Shown here: piece by piece, positions 10,262 to 50,318 of the stretch
How positions within the stretch are numbered: position 1 is the first letter of the stretch
Layout: each line of letters starts with the position of its first letter
From: a virus
Taxonomy: Duplodnaviria; Heunggongvirae; Uroviricota; Caudoviricetes
Reading direction: 5' to 3' (one strand)
Length of the DNA: 64,000 bases
Virus record (IMG/VR): IMGVR_UViG_3300031949_000001
Location: 32,001 to 96,000 of that record
Notes under the pieces: generated by a model
Seen by the model: the letters and a program-made list of their open reading frames with translations, nothing else
The model's database searches: none
Told to the model about the DNA's origin: nothing
Program-made: the position numbers and the translations under genes

Positions 10262-10657
10262 AAGTATTGGCTCGATTGGCTGATACAAGATACACCCTCG
10301 CCACGGGGCGGAATCCGGAGCATGCAGAAGGATTTTTGAAGCACTGAATACAATCGATATGTTCAGTGAAACGTGGCACTTATGGGGAATTCGTCTAAGA
10401 TCAAGGACGCTGCCCAATACAGGCAGAAATGGAGGTCCGAATCCTTCATTCCCCACCAATACGTCGCAAGGCGTATAAGACAATGTGAAACGAAGGACTA
10501 CCTTAAGCCAGTAAAAGTCTGGTGCTGTACTATCACTTCGGTGAGAGAAACAGAACGTCACTGATCAGCGGAGTAATATTGTATCGCTTGGGAAACATAT
10601 TGAATGTCAGCCCAAGGGCTTGCGGTTAATGAGGCATCATTTCCGTGGCAAGCACCT
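10262..10657 (+). ncRNA. candidate ~400-nt structured RNA containing a tRNA-like element
   Basis: long-range pairs 10300-10306/10643-10649 and 10282-10288/10579-10585; GCAA and UUCG hairpins; no credible ORF. Confidence 0.5.
10384..10458 (+). tRNA. tRNA-like element with aberrant loop CAATACA
   Basis: GGGGAAT/ATTCCCC-ACCA; CTGCC/GGCAG stem. Confidence 0.65.
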
Positions 10658-14818: not shown

Positions 14819-15277
14819 ATGATCCCACGAGAAATGATAGTTGAAATGGTTCAGTTCATCTTATTGACATTACCCGGATCATCTGTAAATTTGAATAACC
14901 TTCCAGAAGTTGTCGGGGTAGCGCCAATTGAAATGGCACAAACGGTTTGTGCCTCTGTTGACCCCGAAAAAACACAAGGATGTATGAGTCGGGCGGCTTC
15001 TATTTCAGCAGCTTATGTCCGGAAAGAAAAAAAAGTTTATTACAATGCATTTATTATTCATCCAGAATCGTCTGGTGGTCTTGGAAAGTCGTATCTCGTT
15101 CACGAATTGGTGCATTGGAAACAAGATGTAGATTTTAGTACATTAACATGCGATCAGCTTAAAGAAAAAGAACTCGAAGCCTATCGAGTACAAGACGCGT
15201 ATCTGGCTTCGTTTGATGTAAAGAGTAATTTTGCTGGTAAATTTGGTGAGCGGTTTGTTTGTAATGACAAAAACTAA
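14819..15277 (+). CDS. zincin-like HEXXH protein
   Basis: LVHELVHWKQ...ELEAY. Confidence 0.65.
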   Translation: MIPREMIVEMVQFILLTLPGSSVNLNNLPEVVGVAPIEMAQTVCASVDPEKTQGCMSRAASISAAYVRKEKKVYYNAFIIHPESSGGLGKSYLVHELVHWKQDVDFSTLTCDQLKEKELEAYRVQDAYLASFDVKSNFAGKFGERFVCNDKN

Positions 15278-15545
15278 AGTTGTAAACCGCCATCATGGTC
15301 CATATGATATTTACATCGGAAGACCAAGTAAATGGTCAAACCCTTTCATTATTGGACGGGATGGTACTCGGGAAGAAGTTATAGAGAAATACAGAGAATG
15401 GATTTTAACACAATCAGAACTATTAAGTCAGTTGCCAGAATTAGAAGGAAAACGAATTGCATGTTCATGTGCGCCCAAGGCATGCCACGGAGATGTTTTA
15501 GTTGAACTTTTAGATGGTATGATAACAAATGAGCTTTTACAGTAG
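15264..15545 (+). CDS. DUF4326-like protein
   Basis: DIYIGRPSKWSNPF...CSCAPKACHGDVL. Confidence 0.85.
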   Translation: MTKTKVVNRHHGPYDIYIGRPSKWSNPFIIGRDGTREEVIEKYREWILTQSELLSQLPELEGKRIACSCAPKACHGDVLVELLDGMITNELLQ

Positions 15546-28477: not shown

Positions 28478-28548
28478 CTCCTGTCTGATGGACAGCATTT
28501 AGGTTGCGAGCCTAAATTGGGTCGGTTCGATCCCGACACAGGGGTCCA
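28478..28548 (+). tRNA. tRNA-Arg(GCG), truncated D-arm
   Basis: TTAGG-TTGCGAG-CCTAA; TCCA. Confidence 0.7.
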
Positions 28549-28864: not shown

Positions 28865-29113
28865 GTTAACGGAGAGAAACATGACAGAGGAACCTAGTAT
28901 TTTTATTGATATTGTTGCGGAACCTACAAAATCGATTGTTTTGAAAAAGAATGGACCGGATTGGTTTACTCTTTGGGTTTGGGATATTGATCCAACCAAA
29001 CCGACTTGCTGGTGCGAAGGCGATTCGTATCACTTCAACGCAGAAATGGTTCAAGAAATTCAAATCTCGAAAAAAGATTCGCTTGACAAGTTAGGTGTAA
29101 AGTAGTACATTAC

Positions 29114-29184
29114 GCCCCTACCAAGGGATGGAGGCAGAACTTCTAATTCAGCCGTTGCAGGTCCGAATCCTGCTGGGGGTGCCA
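29114..29184 (+). tRNA. tRNA-Arg(TCT), degenerate D-arm
   Basis: GAA-CTTCTAA-TTC; T-arm; GCCA. Confidence 0.7.
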
Positions 29185-37332: not shown

Positions 37333-37406
37333 TGCCTCATAGTTTAACGGAAGAACAACACCCTTTGAAGGTGTCTGTCTTGGTTCGATTCCAGGTGGGG
37401 TAGCCA
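37333..37406 (+). tRNA. tRNA-Gln(TTG)
   Basis: ACACC-CTTTGAA-GGTGT; GCCA. Confidence 0.9.
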
Positions 37407-37417
37407 AAGGAAAATTT

Positions 37418-38203
37418 ATGTTTTGGGTATTACAGAAAAATCTTTACAATGAAGATGCTTTTGAGGAGCTTCTTCGTCAATTGGAGTTGCAAAACACTTC
37501 CTATCAAGTCGTCAGCATAATTCCATTCGCTCATGAAATGGAGCCAGATGTTAATCCCGAAGGTCATGTTATGACTCTTGGTGCTACATCAATGGCTAAA
37601 ATTTCGAAAAAGAAAGGATGGTTTCCAGGATACTTTGATGAAAATCTTCAGTATTCCTACCTTCTATATGCTTACCAAAAGCATATGCTAAACGCAGAAA
37701 GCGTTATTTACCCATTGCGTGAGCTTCCGAAGCTTTGGGATGAATTCTTCATCCGCCCGAACAATGATAATAAACAGTTTGCTGGATCGACCATGACTTG
37801 GGAGTATTTTGAAACATGGCGTCAAAATCTTATTGCCTTGGATGGTGAAAGTTCATTGACAACTATGACGGCTGATGATTTAGTTGTGATGGCACCGCTT
37901 CAGGACATTTACGCTGAATATCGTTTCTATGTAGTCGATGGAAAAGTTATCACCGGGTCTATATACAAGCGTTCTAATAGGGTGTACTATGTAAATATAA
38001 CGGAATATTCGGACCCTGAGTTGTGGCAGTTCGCTCAAAAGATGGTTAATTTGTGGAGTCCGAATCGTGCGTTTGCGCTGGATGTTGCGTTGACTGAGAA
38101 CGGCTATCATGTCCTTGAGATCAATGCTATCAACTCCGCTGGGTTTTACGCTTGTGACATGGGGAAGTTCATAAATGCGATCAATGGGATGGAATTCAAC
38201 TAA
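37418..38203 (+). CDS. ATP-grasp domain protein (DUF4343-like)
   Basis: FFIRP..D.KQFAG, EYRFYVVDGK, LDV...VLEINAINSAGFY. Confidence 0.8.
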   Translation: MFWVLQKNLYNEDAFEELLRQLELQNTSYQVVSIIPFAHEMEPDVNPEGHVMTLGATSMAKISKKKGWFPGYFDENLQYSYLLYAYQKHMLNAESVIYPLRELPKLWDEFFIRPNNDNKQFAGSTMTWEYFETWRQNLIALDGESSLTTMTADDLVVMAPLQDIYAEYRFYVVDGKVITGSIYKRSNRVYYVNITEYSDPELWQFAQKMVNLWSPNRAFALDVALTENGYHVLEINAINSAGFYACDMGKFINAINGMEFN

Positions 38204-38664: not shown

Positions 38665-39003
38665 ATGTCTCGACTGCTGCTTGCTTTGATTTTGTTGGCT
38701 TCGACTACGTGTTTTAGCGCTTCTTCGGCTAATCTTTTGATTGACAAAAATTGTAAAATTTGGGGTGAGATTGCAAAGACGGTGATGCAGGGGAAGCGCG
38801 GAGGGCTTACAAAGGATCAGATTTTAGGCGATCTTTCAAACGGTTTAACTGGGCAAAAAATTAAGAAGGAAATCGTTGATTCTGTCCTATTGAATATGGG
38901 ATTGTTGTACGATCAACAGCCGAAATGGAGAGAACCACAAGAAATGTATGACGCGACATATCTAGCCTGCTGGGCGCAAGCATATACAAAGCAAGGTCGA
39001 TAA
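38665..39003 (+). CDS. secreted two-Cys protein (paralog family)
   Basis: signal peptide; C...KRGG...C pattern. Confidence 0.65.
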   Translation: MSRLLLALILLASTTCFSASSANLLIDKNCKIWGEIAKTVMQGKRGGLTKDQILGDLSNGLTGQKIKKEIVDSVLLNMGLLYDQQPKWREPQEMYDATYLACWAQAYTKQGR

Positions 39004-39005
39004 TC

Positions 39006-39338
39006 ATGAAAAATGTCTTGCTAACTTTGTTTCTTTTGGGTATAGTATCGGTCTGCTTCGCTGATGGGGGCGAAGTAAACGAAAGAGAATTTCAATGTTC
39101 CAAGATGGGACATTTAGCCAAGCAGATCGTAATCGACCGAGATGCTGGAACCCCAAAAGAAGAAATGATTGCTGAATTCACTGCACTTTATGATCAGATG
39201 TATGGTGAAAGTGATTTAAAAACAAAGTTATTGGAATATGTCGGTATCGTGTATGATGACAAGGAGGATAAGACTCCGAGCGCTGCCTATGCAACGCAAT
39301 ATACACGCTGTTTGACAAAAGGTTATTTTGAATATTAA
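39006..39338 (+). CDS. secreted two-Cys protein (paralog family)
   Basis: signal peptide; C...RDAG...C pattern. Confidence 0.65.
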   Translation: MKNVLLTLFLLGIVSVCFADGGEVNEREFQCSKMGHLAKQIVIDRDAGTPKEEMIAEFTALYDQMYGESDLKTKLLEYVGIVYDDKEDKTPSAAYATQYTRCLTKGYFEY

Positions 39339-39342
39339 GGAT

Positions 39343-39637
39343 TTGGTTAGCCAGATGATCGCTGTGAGAGTAATCTCATAGAAGAAAGTCGGGACTGCAC
39401 TGGCACAGCTTAGGAGTTAATGGCTCCCCACGGTAACGTGAGTGACGGCAACAGAGACGAGTCCGCATAAATAACATTTATGTGGGGTGAAACGGGCGAC
39501 AGCGTAGGTGCAGCAACTATAGACAGGGGGTGTTGATAGTGCCAGGGAGCCTCCGGGTAATAGGCAAAGATTTTAATGGCGACATTGAAACGAGACGAAT
39601 GATCATCCTCGATAGAATCCCGCTTACGTCTAACCAA
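39343..39637 (+). ncRNA. rnpB: RNase P RNA (bacterial type, compact)
   Basis: P1 TTGGTTAG/CTAACCAA; GAAGAAAGTCGGGAC and ATAGAATCCCGCTTA form P4; ACAGAGA and GTGAAACG conserved segments. Confidence 0.9.
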
Positions 39638-40054
39638 AAGGATTTTAAATGAAACTAAGAGAATTAGAAGAAGCAAAAGACCAAATGGCTTTGATTGTCG
39701 ATTGGATAGCTCAGCGTATCGTTCGAGAAGCTCAACAAGAAGCAGCCGTTGCTCAAGAAGTTAAAGGTATCGCTGCTGATAGTGCTATGCTTCATAAAGA
39801 AGCAAAAATGAAGTTGAAAGATTTGATGGATCGGGTTGATACTGAGATATATCACCTTATCTTCAAATGAGAGAATGTTGGGTCTGCTCCGAGCCCATTT
39901 TTGAATGTATGGGATTTGTAGCAGCCGGTGATTTGAATGATTTTTTGGAAGGTAAACGAACGTCGGTTCGTGAAACTTGTGGTGGTTGTATTTTACGTTG
40001 TATGTATGCGGAAGAGATGGGTTTACCCCGACCATTTCCGTATCCAAATGAAAT

Positions 40055-40129
40055 GCCTTCTTAGTTAAATGGATATAACACAAAACTACGAATTTTGAAT
40101 TACGGGTTCGATTCCTGTAGAGGGTGCCA
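40055..40129 (+). tRNA. tRNA-Arg(ACG)
   Basis: CAAAA-CTACGAA-TTTTG; GCCA. Confidence 0.9.
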
Positions 40130-40186: not shown

Positions 40187-41230
40187 ATGCTTTTCAATAT
40201 CTGTCTTTTCGGCTACGGTCTAATTGGTCGCACAATCAACGCATATCTACGCGATCTTCATATCTACAATGTCGATGTCTTCGATAAAAATAAAGTCAAT
40301 TTAAACAAGAAAGGTAAGCCGATAAATCTTGATAATGCGGACGATGTAACCAAGCTACTTAGGGATTACGATGCGGTAATTGCTGCAACACCATATCAAG
40401 TAAACGAATTTATTGCTCATTGTGCTGGTGTTGCTGGTATACCATACTTCGATTTAACTGAAGATGTTGCCACCACAAAAGCCATCACAGCTATGCGAAT
40501 CGATTACGGTTCTACTTTCATTCCTCAATGTGGTCTAGCTCCAGGAGCTATTGGTATTATCACTCGTGACCTTATAAGAGGTTTCGAGGAAATCGATGAA
40601 ATCAAGATGCGGGTAGGAGCGCTTCCAATCACAACCAGCAACCAAATGAAGTATTATCTCTCATGGTCGTCTGAGGGTTTAGTGAATGAATATTATGAGC
40701 CGTGCCCAGCCATCATAAACGGGCGCTACGAGCTTTTAGACCCGCTGGAAGGTTACGAGACATTGTTGCTCGATGGCTGCGAATACGAGGCATTTAACAC
40801 GTCCGGAGGCATTGGTGAATGGGCTAATGATATTCGAATCGCTGGTCCAATTAAGAAGTTGACATACAAAACTATCCGTTACAAAGGACACCGCGATCAA
40901 ATTCTATTCCTGAAAGAAGACTTGGGTCTTTCTAAAGAGAGAATGACTGACATTTTCAATGCTCAGGTTCCGCACAATGAAAATGATGTAGTTCTGATCT
41001 TTTCCGAGGTTATCGGTAGAAACGATGGGACACGCATCCGCAAGAGCTATTTCAAAAAGATTTACGGTGATAAAGGTATTTCTGCTATTCAGAAGACAAC
41101 TGCTGCCGGCATCGTATCGGTGGTTCAGAATTTCTTTAGCTTAAGGAACTCAAAACGAGCCTTTGAATCCAATGAGGGATTGGATTACACGGATTTCATT
41201 ACAAACAAATACGGAGCAATCTTCGCCTAA
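40187..41230 (+). CDS. saccharopine dehydrogenase/lysine 6-dehydrogenase-family oxidoreductase
   Basis: GYGLIG Rossmann motif, YFDLTED, CGLAPG, WS.EGL.NEY, YKTIRYKGH. Confidence 0.85.
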   Translation: MLFNICLFGYGLIGRTINAYLRDLHIYNVDVFDKNKVNLNKKGKPINLDNADDVTKLLRDYDAVIAATPYQVNEFIAHCAGVAGIPYFDLTEDVATTKAITAMRIDYGSTFIPQCGLAPGAIGIITRDLIRGFEEIDEIKMRVGALPITTSNQMKYYLSWSSEGLVNEYYEPCPAIINGRYELLDPLEGYETLLLDGCEYEAFNTSGGIGEWANDIRIAGPIKKLTYKTIRYKGHRDQILFLKEDLGLSKERMTDIFNAQVPHNENDVVLIFSEVIGRNDGTRIRKSYFKKIYGDKGISAIQKTTAAGIVSVVQNFFSLRNSKRAFESNEGLDYTDFITNKYGAIFA

Positions 41231-48182: not shown

Positions 48183-50318
48183 ATGAATGTAGCAAAACTA
48201 CTGACGAGAGAGGAATTTCGAACTAAAGTTTTCGAAAGGGACCACTATCGCTGTGTATTTTGTAAGGCTGACGCTGTTGATGCCCATCATATTATGGAAC
48301 GGCGCCTGTGGGATGATGGAGGATACTATCTTGAGAATGGCGCCTCGGTCTGTACACCATGTCACATTCTTTGTGAAAAGACCTATTATTCGACTGCTGA
48401 TGTAAGGAAGGCTACTGGGATCACTCGTATCCTGCTTCCGGATCATTTCTATGATGACCAGGAGTTCGATAAGTGGGGTAATCCGGTTATGCCGAATGGT
48501 CAGCGTCTTCGTGGAGAGCTTTTTTATGACGGAAGCGTTCAGAAAATCATGGCTGATTACCTACATTTGTTTACGAAGTATATCAAATATCCACGCACAT
48601 TTCACTTACCATGGTCAGATGGAATGCACGATGATGATAGAATGATGCCAGATGTTAAGATTTTTGAAGGTAAGCGAGTTATTGTAATGGAGAAGATGGA
48701 TGGGGAATGTTTGTTAGCGTCCACAAAAATAACTATGAGTGATTTTAGTAAAATTAACATACGTGATATTTATAAAAATAAAATTATAGGACAGCATGTA
48801 TTGGGAGTAAATCAACGAGGTGAAATAGTTCCATCCAAAATATTGAATGTATTTTTTAATGGAGTCACTGAGGAATGGTTAAGTGTGAATGTTAAGGGGC
48901 AACATGGACCATATGTTAAAATAATTTGCACTCCAAATCATAAATTCAATGTTAATGACAATTATATTGAAGCCAAAAATATGAAGGGTGGTGATATGGT
49001 AAAAATAATTGATTATTCTCCTGATTTAACTTCAATACAAGAACAAATTTTATTAGGAATGTTGTTGGGAGACGCATCTATTCATAATGTAAAAGATCAT
49101 GGTTGTAAAAATGTCAATAAAATGGTAATTCAATTTAGCCACAAAAAAGAACATTTAGAATATATTGAATGGATTAATAAGAGACTTGGTGATATCGCTC
49201 GCCAGTATTGTTTTTGTACCTCAGGTTTTGGTTCTACAATGATTAAATGTTGGACGGCTTCTTCAAATTCTATCTTTAATTCTTTTAATTCGATGATAGT
49301 GAATGGTAAGAAAATCGTCCCGAATTGGGTTATTGAAAAAATAACACCATTATCATTAGCATTTTGGTATATGGATGATGGAAATTTACTACATAATTTC
49401 AAACAACGCGATAGAGCACAGTTCTCAGTCTGTGGATTTGACCGAGAAAGTTGTCTTGTTTTACAACAATGTCTTGAAAAGTTTGGTATTAATTCAGTAT
49501 TGGAAGAATATAAAAATTATTTATATTTACGTTTATTTACAAACGATTCAGAAAGATTTTTTGAATTAATTTCACCACATATTCCACCGTGTATGCAGTA
49601 TAAATTACCAGAGAAACTTAGAGGCAAAGAACTGACTATACCAAAAGTTGAACATAATATTTCTGTTCCTAGATTACGTGAAGTGGAGGTTAAATCGGTT
49701 GAAAAATATTTACATAACACTAATCGTGGAAAATATGATATAGAAACTGAAACACATAATTATTTTGCTAATGGAGTATTAGTTCATAATTGCACCACCA
49801 TGTACAATGATTACATCCATGCGCGTAGTATTGATTCTGGTTCTCATGGTTCAAGAAATTGGATCAAGGCATTCCATGGACAAATGTGTAATAATATTCC
49901 AGATGATTGGCGGATCAACGTCGAAAACGTTTATGCCAAGCATTCGATTTTTTACAAAAACTTACCGACTTATGCTTATGGTTTTGCTCTCTGGAATGAA
50001 AAGAACTATCTTCTGGATTGGATGACCTCACTGGAATGGTTTGAACTCCTTGGAATAACTCCATGTCCGTGGTTCTATTGGGACACATATGACAGAAAAA
50101 AGATTCATTCTTTATATGAGGAACTTTCCAAGGATCACGAAACCGAAGGTTATGTAATCAGAGTTGACGAACCGTTTCATTATGGTCAATTCCGAACACA
50201 CGTTGGAAAATTCGTGAGAAAGGGTCATATTCAAACTACAAAACATTGGGCGTATGGTCAGAAAATTGAACCAAACATATTAAAAGAAGGAGTTACGGGA
50301 TTTGAGGCTCTATTGTAA
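48183..50318 (+). CDS. HNH domain-RNA ligase fusion containing an intein
   Basis: N-terminal CVFC..DAHHI...CTPCH; KYPRTFHLPWS...EKMDGE|C; EGYVIR, KFVR. Confidence 0.85.
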   Translation: MNVAKLLTREEFRTKVFERDHYRCVFCKADAVDAHHIMERRLWDDGGYYLENGASVCTPCHILCEKTYYSTADVRKATGITRILLPDHFYDDQEFDKWGNPVMPNGQRLRGELFYDGSVQKIMADYLHLFTKYIKYPRTFHLPWSDGMHDDDRMMPDVKIFEGKRVIVMEKMDGECLLASTKITMSDFSKINIRDIYKNKIIGQHVLGVNQRGEIVPSKILNVFFNGVTEEWLSVNVKGQHGPYVKIICTPNHKFNVNDNYIEAKNMKGGDMVKIIDYSPDLTSIQEQILLGMLLGDASIHNVKDHGCKNVNKMVIQFSHKKEHLEYIEWINKRLGDIARQYCFCTSGFGSTMIKCWTASSNSIFNSFNSMIVNGKKIVPNWVIEKITPLSLAFWYMDDGNLLHNFKQRDRAQFSVCGFDRESCLVLQQCLEKFGINSVLEEYKNYLYLRLFTNDSERFFELISPHIPPCMQYKLPEKLRGKELTIPKVEHNISVPRLREVEVKSVEKYLHNTNRGKYDIETETHNYFANGVLVHNCTTMYNDYIHARSIDSGSHGSRNWIKAFHGQMCNNIPDDWRINVENVYAKHSIFYKNLPTYAYGFALWNEKNYLLDWMTSLEWFELLGITPCPWFYWDTYDRKKIHSLYEELSKDHETEGYVIRVDEPFHYGQFRTHVGKFVRKGHIQTTKHWAYGQKIEPNILKEGVTGFEALL
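48708..49790 (+). mobile_element. intein with LAGLIDADG endonuclease
   Basis: starts CLLAST; CTPNHKF; LGMLLGDA and WYMDDG; ends VLVHN followed by Cys+1; lower GC. Confidence 0.9.

Follow-up and report, generated by a model that had tools for sequence, protein, structure and literature searches.

Introduction

The removal of 5' leaders from new tRNAs is catalysed by RNase P RNA, one of the few universal ribozymes, whose gene (rnpB) is regarded as belonging to cells or organelles. The natural point of comparison for the locus reported here is the M1 RNA of Escherichia coli, a type-A RNA of about 377 nt (Rfam family RF00010, RNaseP_bact_a). Smaller relatives are found in nature, because bacteria have lost P13/P14 (and P16/P17) while retaining the core, a loss that was termed 'not unusual' (PMC8172020). 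These reduced RNAs are the sole, essential chromosomal copies in their carriers, and two-thirds of them are devoid of the CCA-binding motif (PMC8172020). The megaphages of the same paper (Lui et al. 2021) had 'only tRNAs and a tmRNA'. Co-oriented tRNA arrays and tmRNA are known from huge and jumbo phages (Al-Shayeb et al. 2020, PMC7162821; XacN1, with 56 tRNA genes, PMC5852040), and RNase P RNA goes unmentioned in both of these studies. The literature that we searched (on huge phages, XacN1, jumbo-phage reviews, a survey of viral structured RNAs, and rnpB annotation, with most subscription journals outside the search) held no account of a virus-encoded RNase P RNA and no report of a second rnpB beside tRNA arrays.

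Here we describe a phage-borne, shortened bacterial type-A RNase P RNA gene that lies in a tRNA region. It is a member of a known RNA family in an unusual carrier. What is new is a copy that keeps its S-domain and is detectable by standard annotation, together with evidence on the mobility of its clade, carriers among cultured bacteria, and an apparently compensated change in the catalytic core.

A shortened type-A rnpB in the tRNA region of a jumbo phage

The window that we analysed is a stretch of 64,000 nucleotides, bases 32001-96000 of a 378,912-bp IMG/VR virus record. In a first-pass annotation of this DNA an RNase P RNA had been read at 39343-39637 from P1, the P4-forming segments and internal conserved motifs. 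This reading was borne out by a covariance-model search (cmscan, whole window, Rfam 15), in which RF00010 matched at 39343-39641 on the plus strand with 142.3 bits (E 1e-43), the gathering score of the family being 100 bits. The match spans model positions 1-367, is not truncated, and is the single RF00010 match in the entire record. The end at 39637 that had been read by eye is the last base of P1, to which the Rfam match adds four unpaired bases. The resulting length of 295-299 nt is, as had been remarked, below the usual size of the gene (about 340-410 nt in the cellular-type copies that we compared), because model positions ~160-202, which form P13/P14, have no counterpart in the window.

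The carrier is a tailed jumbo phage, and we saw no signs of a chimera. CheckV estimated the record to be 94% complete, and among its genes is one for a terminase large subunit (PF17289), whose best cultured matches are those of the Xanthomonas phages XacN1 and Xoo-sp13 (48% identity), followed by jumbo phages of Stenotrophomonas, Ralstonia, Sinorhizobium, Pseudomonas and Agrobacterium. GC skew and composition run smooth and uniform through the rnpB region. The gene is embedded among short phage-type ORFs on the same strand, with the closest tRNA genes 1.9 kb upstream and 0.4 kb downstream:

37333-37406, plus strand: tRNA-Gln-UUG, nearest upstream tRNA gene (ARAGORN)
38665-39003, plus strand: tandem paralogue, also phrog_2315, of the ORF that follows
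39006-39338, plus strand: upstream phage ORF of 110 aa (phrog_2315), its stop codon 4 nt before P1
39343-39641, plus strand: rnpB, bacterial type A, reduced, without P13/P14 (Rfam RF00010)
39649-39870, plus strand: downstream ORF without an assigned family (73 aa), whose ribosome-binding site, AAGGA, overlaps the 3' tail of rnpB
40055-40129, plus strand: tRNA-Arg-ACG, nearest downstream tRNA gene (ARAGORN)

The rnpB neighbourhood is flanked by genes for an R2K-clade ATP-grasp protein (window 37418-38203, plus strand) and a saccharopine-dehydrogenase-like protein (40187-41230, plus strand). In a synteny search, rnpB was absent from three IMG/VR fragments that hold relatives of the latter gene with 50% amino-acid identity.

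The tRNA complement is large. ARAGORN found 39 tRNA genes in the window and 56 in the genome, and Rfam cmscan matched 33 in the window, so that the figure of about 45 tRNA or tRNA-like genes in the first-pass annotation was about right. A CCA 3' end is encoded by 53 of the 56 phage tRNA genes; a CCA-adding enzyme was not detected in the phage genome. Several members of the set are unusual in their own right. ARAGORN reported a tRNA-Tyr with anticodon AUA at window 10384-10458 and, outside the window, a tRNA with anticodon CUA (labelled Pyl; G000:C1:268404-268479, minus strand) that may be an amber suppressor. Short Arg tRNAs of 70-73 nt, with the anticodon at position 29-31, lie at window 28478-28548 and 29112-29184, and short Arg tRNAs also occur beside clade members on unrelated contigs (L184 6097-6325, L163 1728-1799, L176 933-1005 and L181 5409-5478). 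The tRNA region further contains an intein-interrupted RNA ligase gene, an ORF of 711 aa (window 48183-50318, plus strand) with an RNA ligase domain and an intein (Intein_splicing) that bears a LAGLIDADG homing endonuclease.

The window copy has a complete type-A fold

We mapped the Rfam structure line onto the window sequence and added both pseudoknots (P4 and P6) by hand. The helices drawn in this way are P1-P12, P15, P16 and P18, the two pseudoknots included, and 92 of the 93 pairs of the full type-A fold are standard. P1, the segments that form P4, and the internal conserved motifs of the first-pass annotation could each be located in it:

39343-39352, plus strand: P1 5' strand, pairs with 39628-39637; an uninterrupted 8-bp run (39343-39350 with 39630-39637) plus C10-G286
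39354-39360, plus strand: P2 5' strand, 7 Watson-Crick pairs with 39601-39607
39362-39381, plus strand: P3 hairpin, 8 bp, GUAA loop (relatives have only 3 bp)
39386-39393, plus strand: P4 5' strand (CR-I), AAG-U-CGGG, with the bulged U at 39389
39402-39406, plus strand: P6 pseudoknot 5' strand, GGCAC, pairs with GUGCC at 39539-39543; read by eye, then pair-checked
39413-39442, plus strand: P8 and P9 hairpins, L9 being GUAA
39451-39492, plus strand: J11/12 (ACAGAGACGAGU), short P12 and J12/13 (GUGAAA), that is CR-II/CR-III, the module that reads the tRNA elbow
39517-39563, plus strand: P15-L15-P16, with the CCA-binding GGU at 39556-39558
39539-39543, plus strand: P6 pseudoknot 3' strand, in the loop closed by P16
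39571-39590, plus strand: P18 hairpin, 8 bp, GCGA (GNRA) loop
39619-39625, plus strand: P4 3' strand (CR-V), CCCGCUU, 7 pairs with 39386-39393

The features that set type A apart from type B are all present, namely the P6 pseudoknot, P15-L15-P16 with its GGU, and P18 with a GNRA loop. In the specificity domain, the P7-P11 cruciform, P12, J11/12 and J12/13 could likewise be drawn with standard pairs. Single-stranded motifs were kept as well: CR-I, J5/15 (GCAA), the L15 GGU, J18/2 (AGACGAAUG), CR-V and CR-II/CR-III. The main inter-domain contacts of type-A RNAs are given in PMC8457005 as L8-P4 and L18-P8, and the hairpins that form both are present in the window copy. Thermodynamically, the fold was only weakly better than that of shuffled sequences (z -1.9).

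The reduction concerns two elements. After J12/13 two unpaired bases (C151 and G152) lead directly into the 3' strand of P11, where other type-A RNAs have P13/P14, and the 43 model positions of P13/P14 correspond to no base in the window. P17 is vestigial, with no real helix, and the Rfam columns for P17 are mismatched. The window RNA thus shares with E. coli M1 RNA the P1-P5, P15 and P18 core, the P4 pseudoknot with its bulged U, the P6 pseudoknot, the L15 GGU for CCA, and the CR-II/CR-III elbow module. It differs from M1 RNA in being virus-encoded without rnpA, in its shorter length, in having no P13/P14 and only a vestige of P17, and in lying between protein genes without a detectable promoter or terminator. 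Unlike two-thirds of the reduced bacterial RNAs discussed above, it keeps the CCA-binding motif.

Two bases of the core depart from the consensus: CR-I reads GAAG where the consensus has GAGG, and CR-V reads AUAG where it has ACAG. Both departures co-occur in the window copy and in one of its nearest relatives (G010), whereas 36 other copies read G and C at these positions (the eight remaining rows of this count were regular-expression failures, or G and C by eye). This suggests that A 39383 and U 39613 form a compensated J3/4-J2/4 contact in the catalytic core. In P4 itself, the window has a G-C pair where E. coli has C-G.

The fold is under selection

We next consider whether the helices have been maintained in related sequences. 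Pair counts were taken from a MAFFT alignment of 12 sequences, with the structure derived from the window copy, itself a member of the alignment; this choice of source favours the fraction of cells that are paired, not the compensatory counts. Over the 12 members, 87.9% of the cells were paired, compared with 36-44% when the partners were slid by 1-3 columns. Changes on both sides were seen in 44 of the 88 pairs, and none of 500 shuffles reached any of the five measures. Compensatory pairs were found in P2 (4 of 7), P6 (4 of 5), P15 (4 of 4) and P18 (6 of 8). In this 12-sequence alignment the cells of P6 were 100% and those of P4 98.8% paired, and one P4 pair flips across the clade, being GC 8 times and CG 4 times. 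P1 scored poorly, which we rejected as a real weakness since MAFFT had mis-set the 3' ends; each clade member has a P1 of 4-10 bp, with a sequence of its own. The CGGGU of the L15 region is invariant in the 12 sequences. For ACAGAGACGA and UGAAAC, the only deviations in the clade are single substitutions in two members (G012 and L184).

The comparison with G010 gave the same picture, in that 24 helix pairs differ, 17 by double and 7 by single changes, and not one is broken. The compensatory changes within the clade and the lack of any broken pair against G010 therefore identify a fold that is under selection and, most probably, an active ribozyme.

Related copies head tRNA arrays in uncultured large phages

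The first-pass annotation had called phage rnpB genes uncommon. For cultured phages this held: RF00010 had no match in eight related cultured jumbo phages (XacN1, Xoo-sp13, CM1, RsoM2USA, Phosso, PA5oct, XaC1 and Atu_ph07). The larger of these RF00010 searches used stricter filters, under which weak copies could be missed. In uncultured large phages, by contrast, the gene recurs. A degenerate CR-I pattern occurred in 92 stretches of IMG/VR; 38 such records were searched with RF00010, of which 31 matched, 26 of them above the cut-off. The rnpB-bearing matches include complete jumbo phages of 369 kb (G024), 169 kb (G008) and 463 kb (G007), two of them with terminal repeats. At the nucleotide level the window gene stands apart, with no blastn match in 50,697 phage records even at E 10 and nothing in an exact 20-mer scan of IMG/VR. 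Its nearest relatives (G010, G028 and G012) have ~70% identity and the same architecture.

A dense, co-oriented tRNA array surrounded rnpB in all eight of the 20-kb regions that we fetched, and every clade member examined, whether on viral or metagenome contigs, adjoins or lies in a tRNA array. One example, L184, has 31 tRNA genes in 12.5 kb. In the relatives, rnpB usually follows a tRNA-Pro gene by ~20 nt, and in one of them (L213) another tRNA starts 2 nt after rnpB. The junction UGAAACGGGCGACAGCG, which served in the scans by which metagenome members were added to the clade, is invariant in the clade. A metagenome scan with a 17-mer of the junction returned at least 120 stretches, of which only 12 were real rnpB by nhmmer, and the others were discarded as chance matches.

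Two of the rnpB-bearing arrays also hold a tmRNA (L128, on G010, 14924-15286; L134, on G026, 449-816), one of them permuted and with a long tag. Two viral contigs carry candidate miniature RNase P RNAs of 191 nt (L123, G032:C1:482-672, 106.8 bits) and 198 nt (L127, G006:C1:54324-54521, 63.9 bits), whose RF00010 matches both span the whole model. Some apparent phage copies were set aside. With the G007 copy as query, blastn gave rnpB-like matches in a Salmonella record and in two records filed as phages, Microcystis phage MaAM05 and Acinetobacter phage MD-2021a (MW495066.1, 115323-115368, L280; CAKLQF020000022.1, L281). All three have a housekeeping context, in the two named phages with fabI, engB, mtgA and coaD, and are probably cellular DNA within the phage collection.

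One clade in viral contigs and bacterial chromosomes

To place the copies relative to each other we used a quick maximum-likelihood tree (44 copies, 292 columns), which is unrooted and compositionally uneven, and we relied only on its supported groupings. Twenty-one reduced copies form one clade (SH-aLRT 99%), separate from the cellular copies sampled, and the window copy falls within a subclade of seven (96% support). The rnpB clade does not follow phage kinship. RF00010 matched none of the eight cultured phages closest by terminase, and the terminase of our phage had no detectable homologue on the four contigs that carry the closest rnpB copies, although these contigs are only 69-89% complete.

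The clade also extends into bacteria. When each bacterial species was represented by a single genome, a scan for the clade junction found it in Inquilinus limosus and in eight genomes of Mesorhizobium. All five genomes that we then searched (L274-L278: Inquilinus limosus and Mesorhizobium temperatum, M. wenxiniae, M. sp. M1312 and M. ventifaucium) have two RF00010 matches each. One is a canonical rnpB of about 400 nt (280-314 bits). The other, shorter copy (285-304 nt, 132-145 bits) adjoins a small tRNA array, with 3-11 tRNA genes in the fetched stretches. The second copies sit among ordinary chromosomal genes, e.g. those for a DbpA helicase, hydrolases and AcrB, and have a host-like GC content of 65-67%. 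Their identity to the window copy is ~61%, but only 55-58% to the canonical rnpB that the respective genome carries. Between the two genera the second copies share 86% identity, and in the tree they nest inside the phage clade. Copies of this kind were not found in a further 200 genomes from the family.

Taken together, the mismatch with phage kinship and the nesting of bacterial second copies inside the phage clade point to horizontal spread of a cassette of rnpB plus tRNA array. A wider reading is that the reduced rnpB marks a mobile module of tRNA array and processing ribozyme, a lineage distinct from the cellular ones that is swapped among unrelated large phages and occasionally lands in bacterial chromosomes. 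We put this forward tentatively, at a little under even chances.

Other readings of the locus

Could the gene be a functionless passenger, or not phage DNA at all? A decaying, recently captured fragment of a host rnpB would agree with a length below that of cellular copies, with two substitutions at highly conserved core positions and with the patchy occurrence among related phages. Against this, no pair is broken after ~30% divergence from the relatives, the clade is deep and stands apart from cellular copies, and the two core substitutions appear to compensate each other. The absence of broken pairs, the covariation across the clade and the apparently compensated core therefore exclude a decaying pseudogene for practical purposes, and we regard the captured fragment as extremely improbable. 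The same low weight is given to an assembly chimera or to misfiled cellular or plasmid DNA. Viral collections do contain cellular DNA, as the two accessions filed as phages illustrate, but the record in question has a terminase, with a TerL like that of XacN1, and the near-complete CheckV estimate; rnpB has phage ORFs on both sides and on the same strand, within DNA of uniform GC skew and composition; and its relatives occur in other viral contigs with tRNA arrays.

Two further readings grant that the RNA is functional and dispute what it does. According to one, which takes up the remark in the first-pass annotation that the RNA was perhaps suited to aberrant substrates, the reduced S-domain would be an adaptation to remodelled tRNAs and tRNA-shaped RNAs of the phage. 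The short Arg tRNAs in the window and beside clade members L184, L163, L176 and L181 fit this, as does the fact that P13/P14 belong to the domain that reads the tRNA elbow. Yet the elbow-reading module itself, J11/12 and J12/13, is conserved, RNAs with the same reduction stand at the head of ordinary tRNA arrays in other phages as well as in Mesorhizobium and Inquilinus, and the absence of P13/P14 has been described as 'not unusual' among bacteria (PMC8172020). The remark on aberrant substrates is thus unsupported, and we consider altered specificity unlikely. Less likely still is a decoy or regulator that soaks up host RnpA or competes with host RNase P, and so cuts the host tRNA supply or blunts defence. 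Such an RNA must compete for the host protein, as rnpA was not found in the phage, and it could be dispensable, as rnpB is in related phages; for a decoy, however, the protein-binding part alone would suffice, and what is maintained goes well beyond it (L15 GGU, CR-II/CR-III, the P4 core and apparently compensated core changes). We therefore prefer, with good though not full confidence, the view that the tRNA region of this ~379-kb tailed phage contains a functional gene for the RNase P catalytic RNA.

A proposed role in the maturation of phage tRNAs

The phage would provide only one of the two subunits. A search for RnpA (PF00825) gave no match at E<=1 in the phage, nor in the rnpB-bearing G010, G028, G012, G024 and G007, in a search whose control found the protein in 10 of 14 reference genomes. 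The earlier statement that the phage supplies its own 5' maturation therefore stands for the RNA subunit alone, so that either a host protein or activity of the RNA alone would be needed. Bacterial P RNAs and RnpA proteins of different species reconstitute active enzyme, which makes the use of host RnpA plausible, and since RnpA was not detected in the phage we infer that the protein subunit is the host's.

Expression would likewise lean on the surroundings. The search for a promoter or terminator near rnpB returned nothing above chance, and TTGACA at 39312-39317 was discarded as a promoter, being by eye without a usable -10 box. Wedged in 4 nt after a stop codon and running into the next ribosome-binding site, without a promoter or terminator of its own, the RNA would have to be cut from a longer transcript. 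In the relatives tRNA genes lie so close to rnpB that ordinary tRNA processing would release the RNA there.

For the phage of the window we propose that rnpB is transcribed with its co-oriented neighbours in a long transcript, from which host nucleases may excise the RNA. The excised RNA would fold into the type-A core, would most likely bind host RnpA, and would then trim the 5' leaders off precursor tRNAs. Its main substrates are predicted to be the phage's own 56 tRNAs, nearly all of them encoded with a 3' CCA to which the retained L15 GGU can pair. Since ORFs on the same strand lie between the tRNA genes, every such cut would at the same time split polycistronic transcripts. The likely benefit would be an extra, or host-independent, supply of RNase P RNA for a large burst of phage pre-tRNA. 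XacN1, with an equally large set of 56 tRNA genes, has no rnpB match; a large tRNA set thus does not require rnpB, and the gene is an accessory, presumably helpful and not necessary.

Significance

The clade offers naturally minimised type-A RNAs for RNase P biochemistry. The window copy should be easy to work with, since it is detected by standard annotation and retains the S-domain, and because clade relatives are present in cultured bacteria (Mesorhizobium temperatum, M. wenxiniae and Inquilinus limosus), expression and function are testable without culturing a phage. If the reading of a mobile module is true, phages would depend only in part on the RNase P RNA of the host for their supply of tRNA. 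More generally, a conserved and selected lineage of phage rnpB means that the translation toolkit of large phages, known for its tRNAs and tmRNA, reaches as far as the maturation of tRNA.
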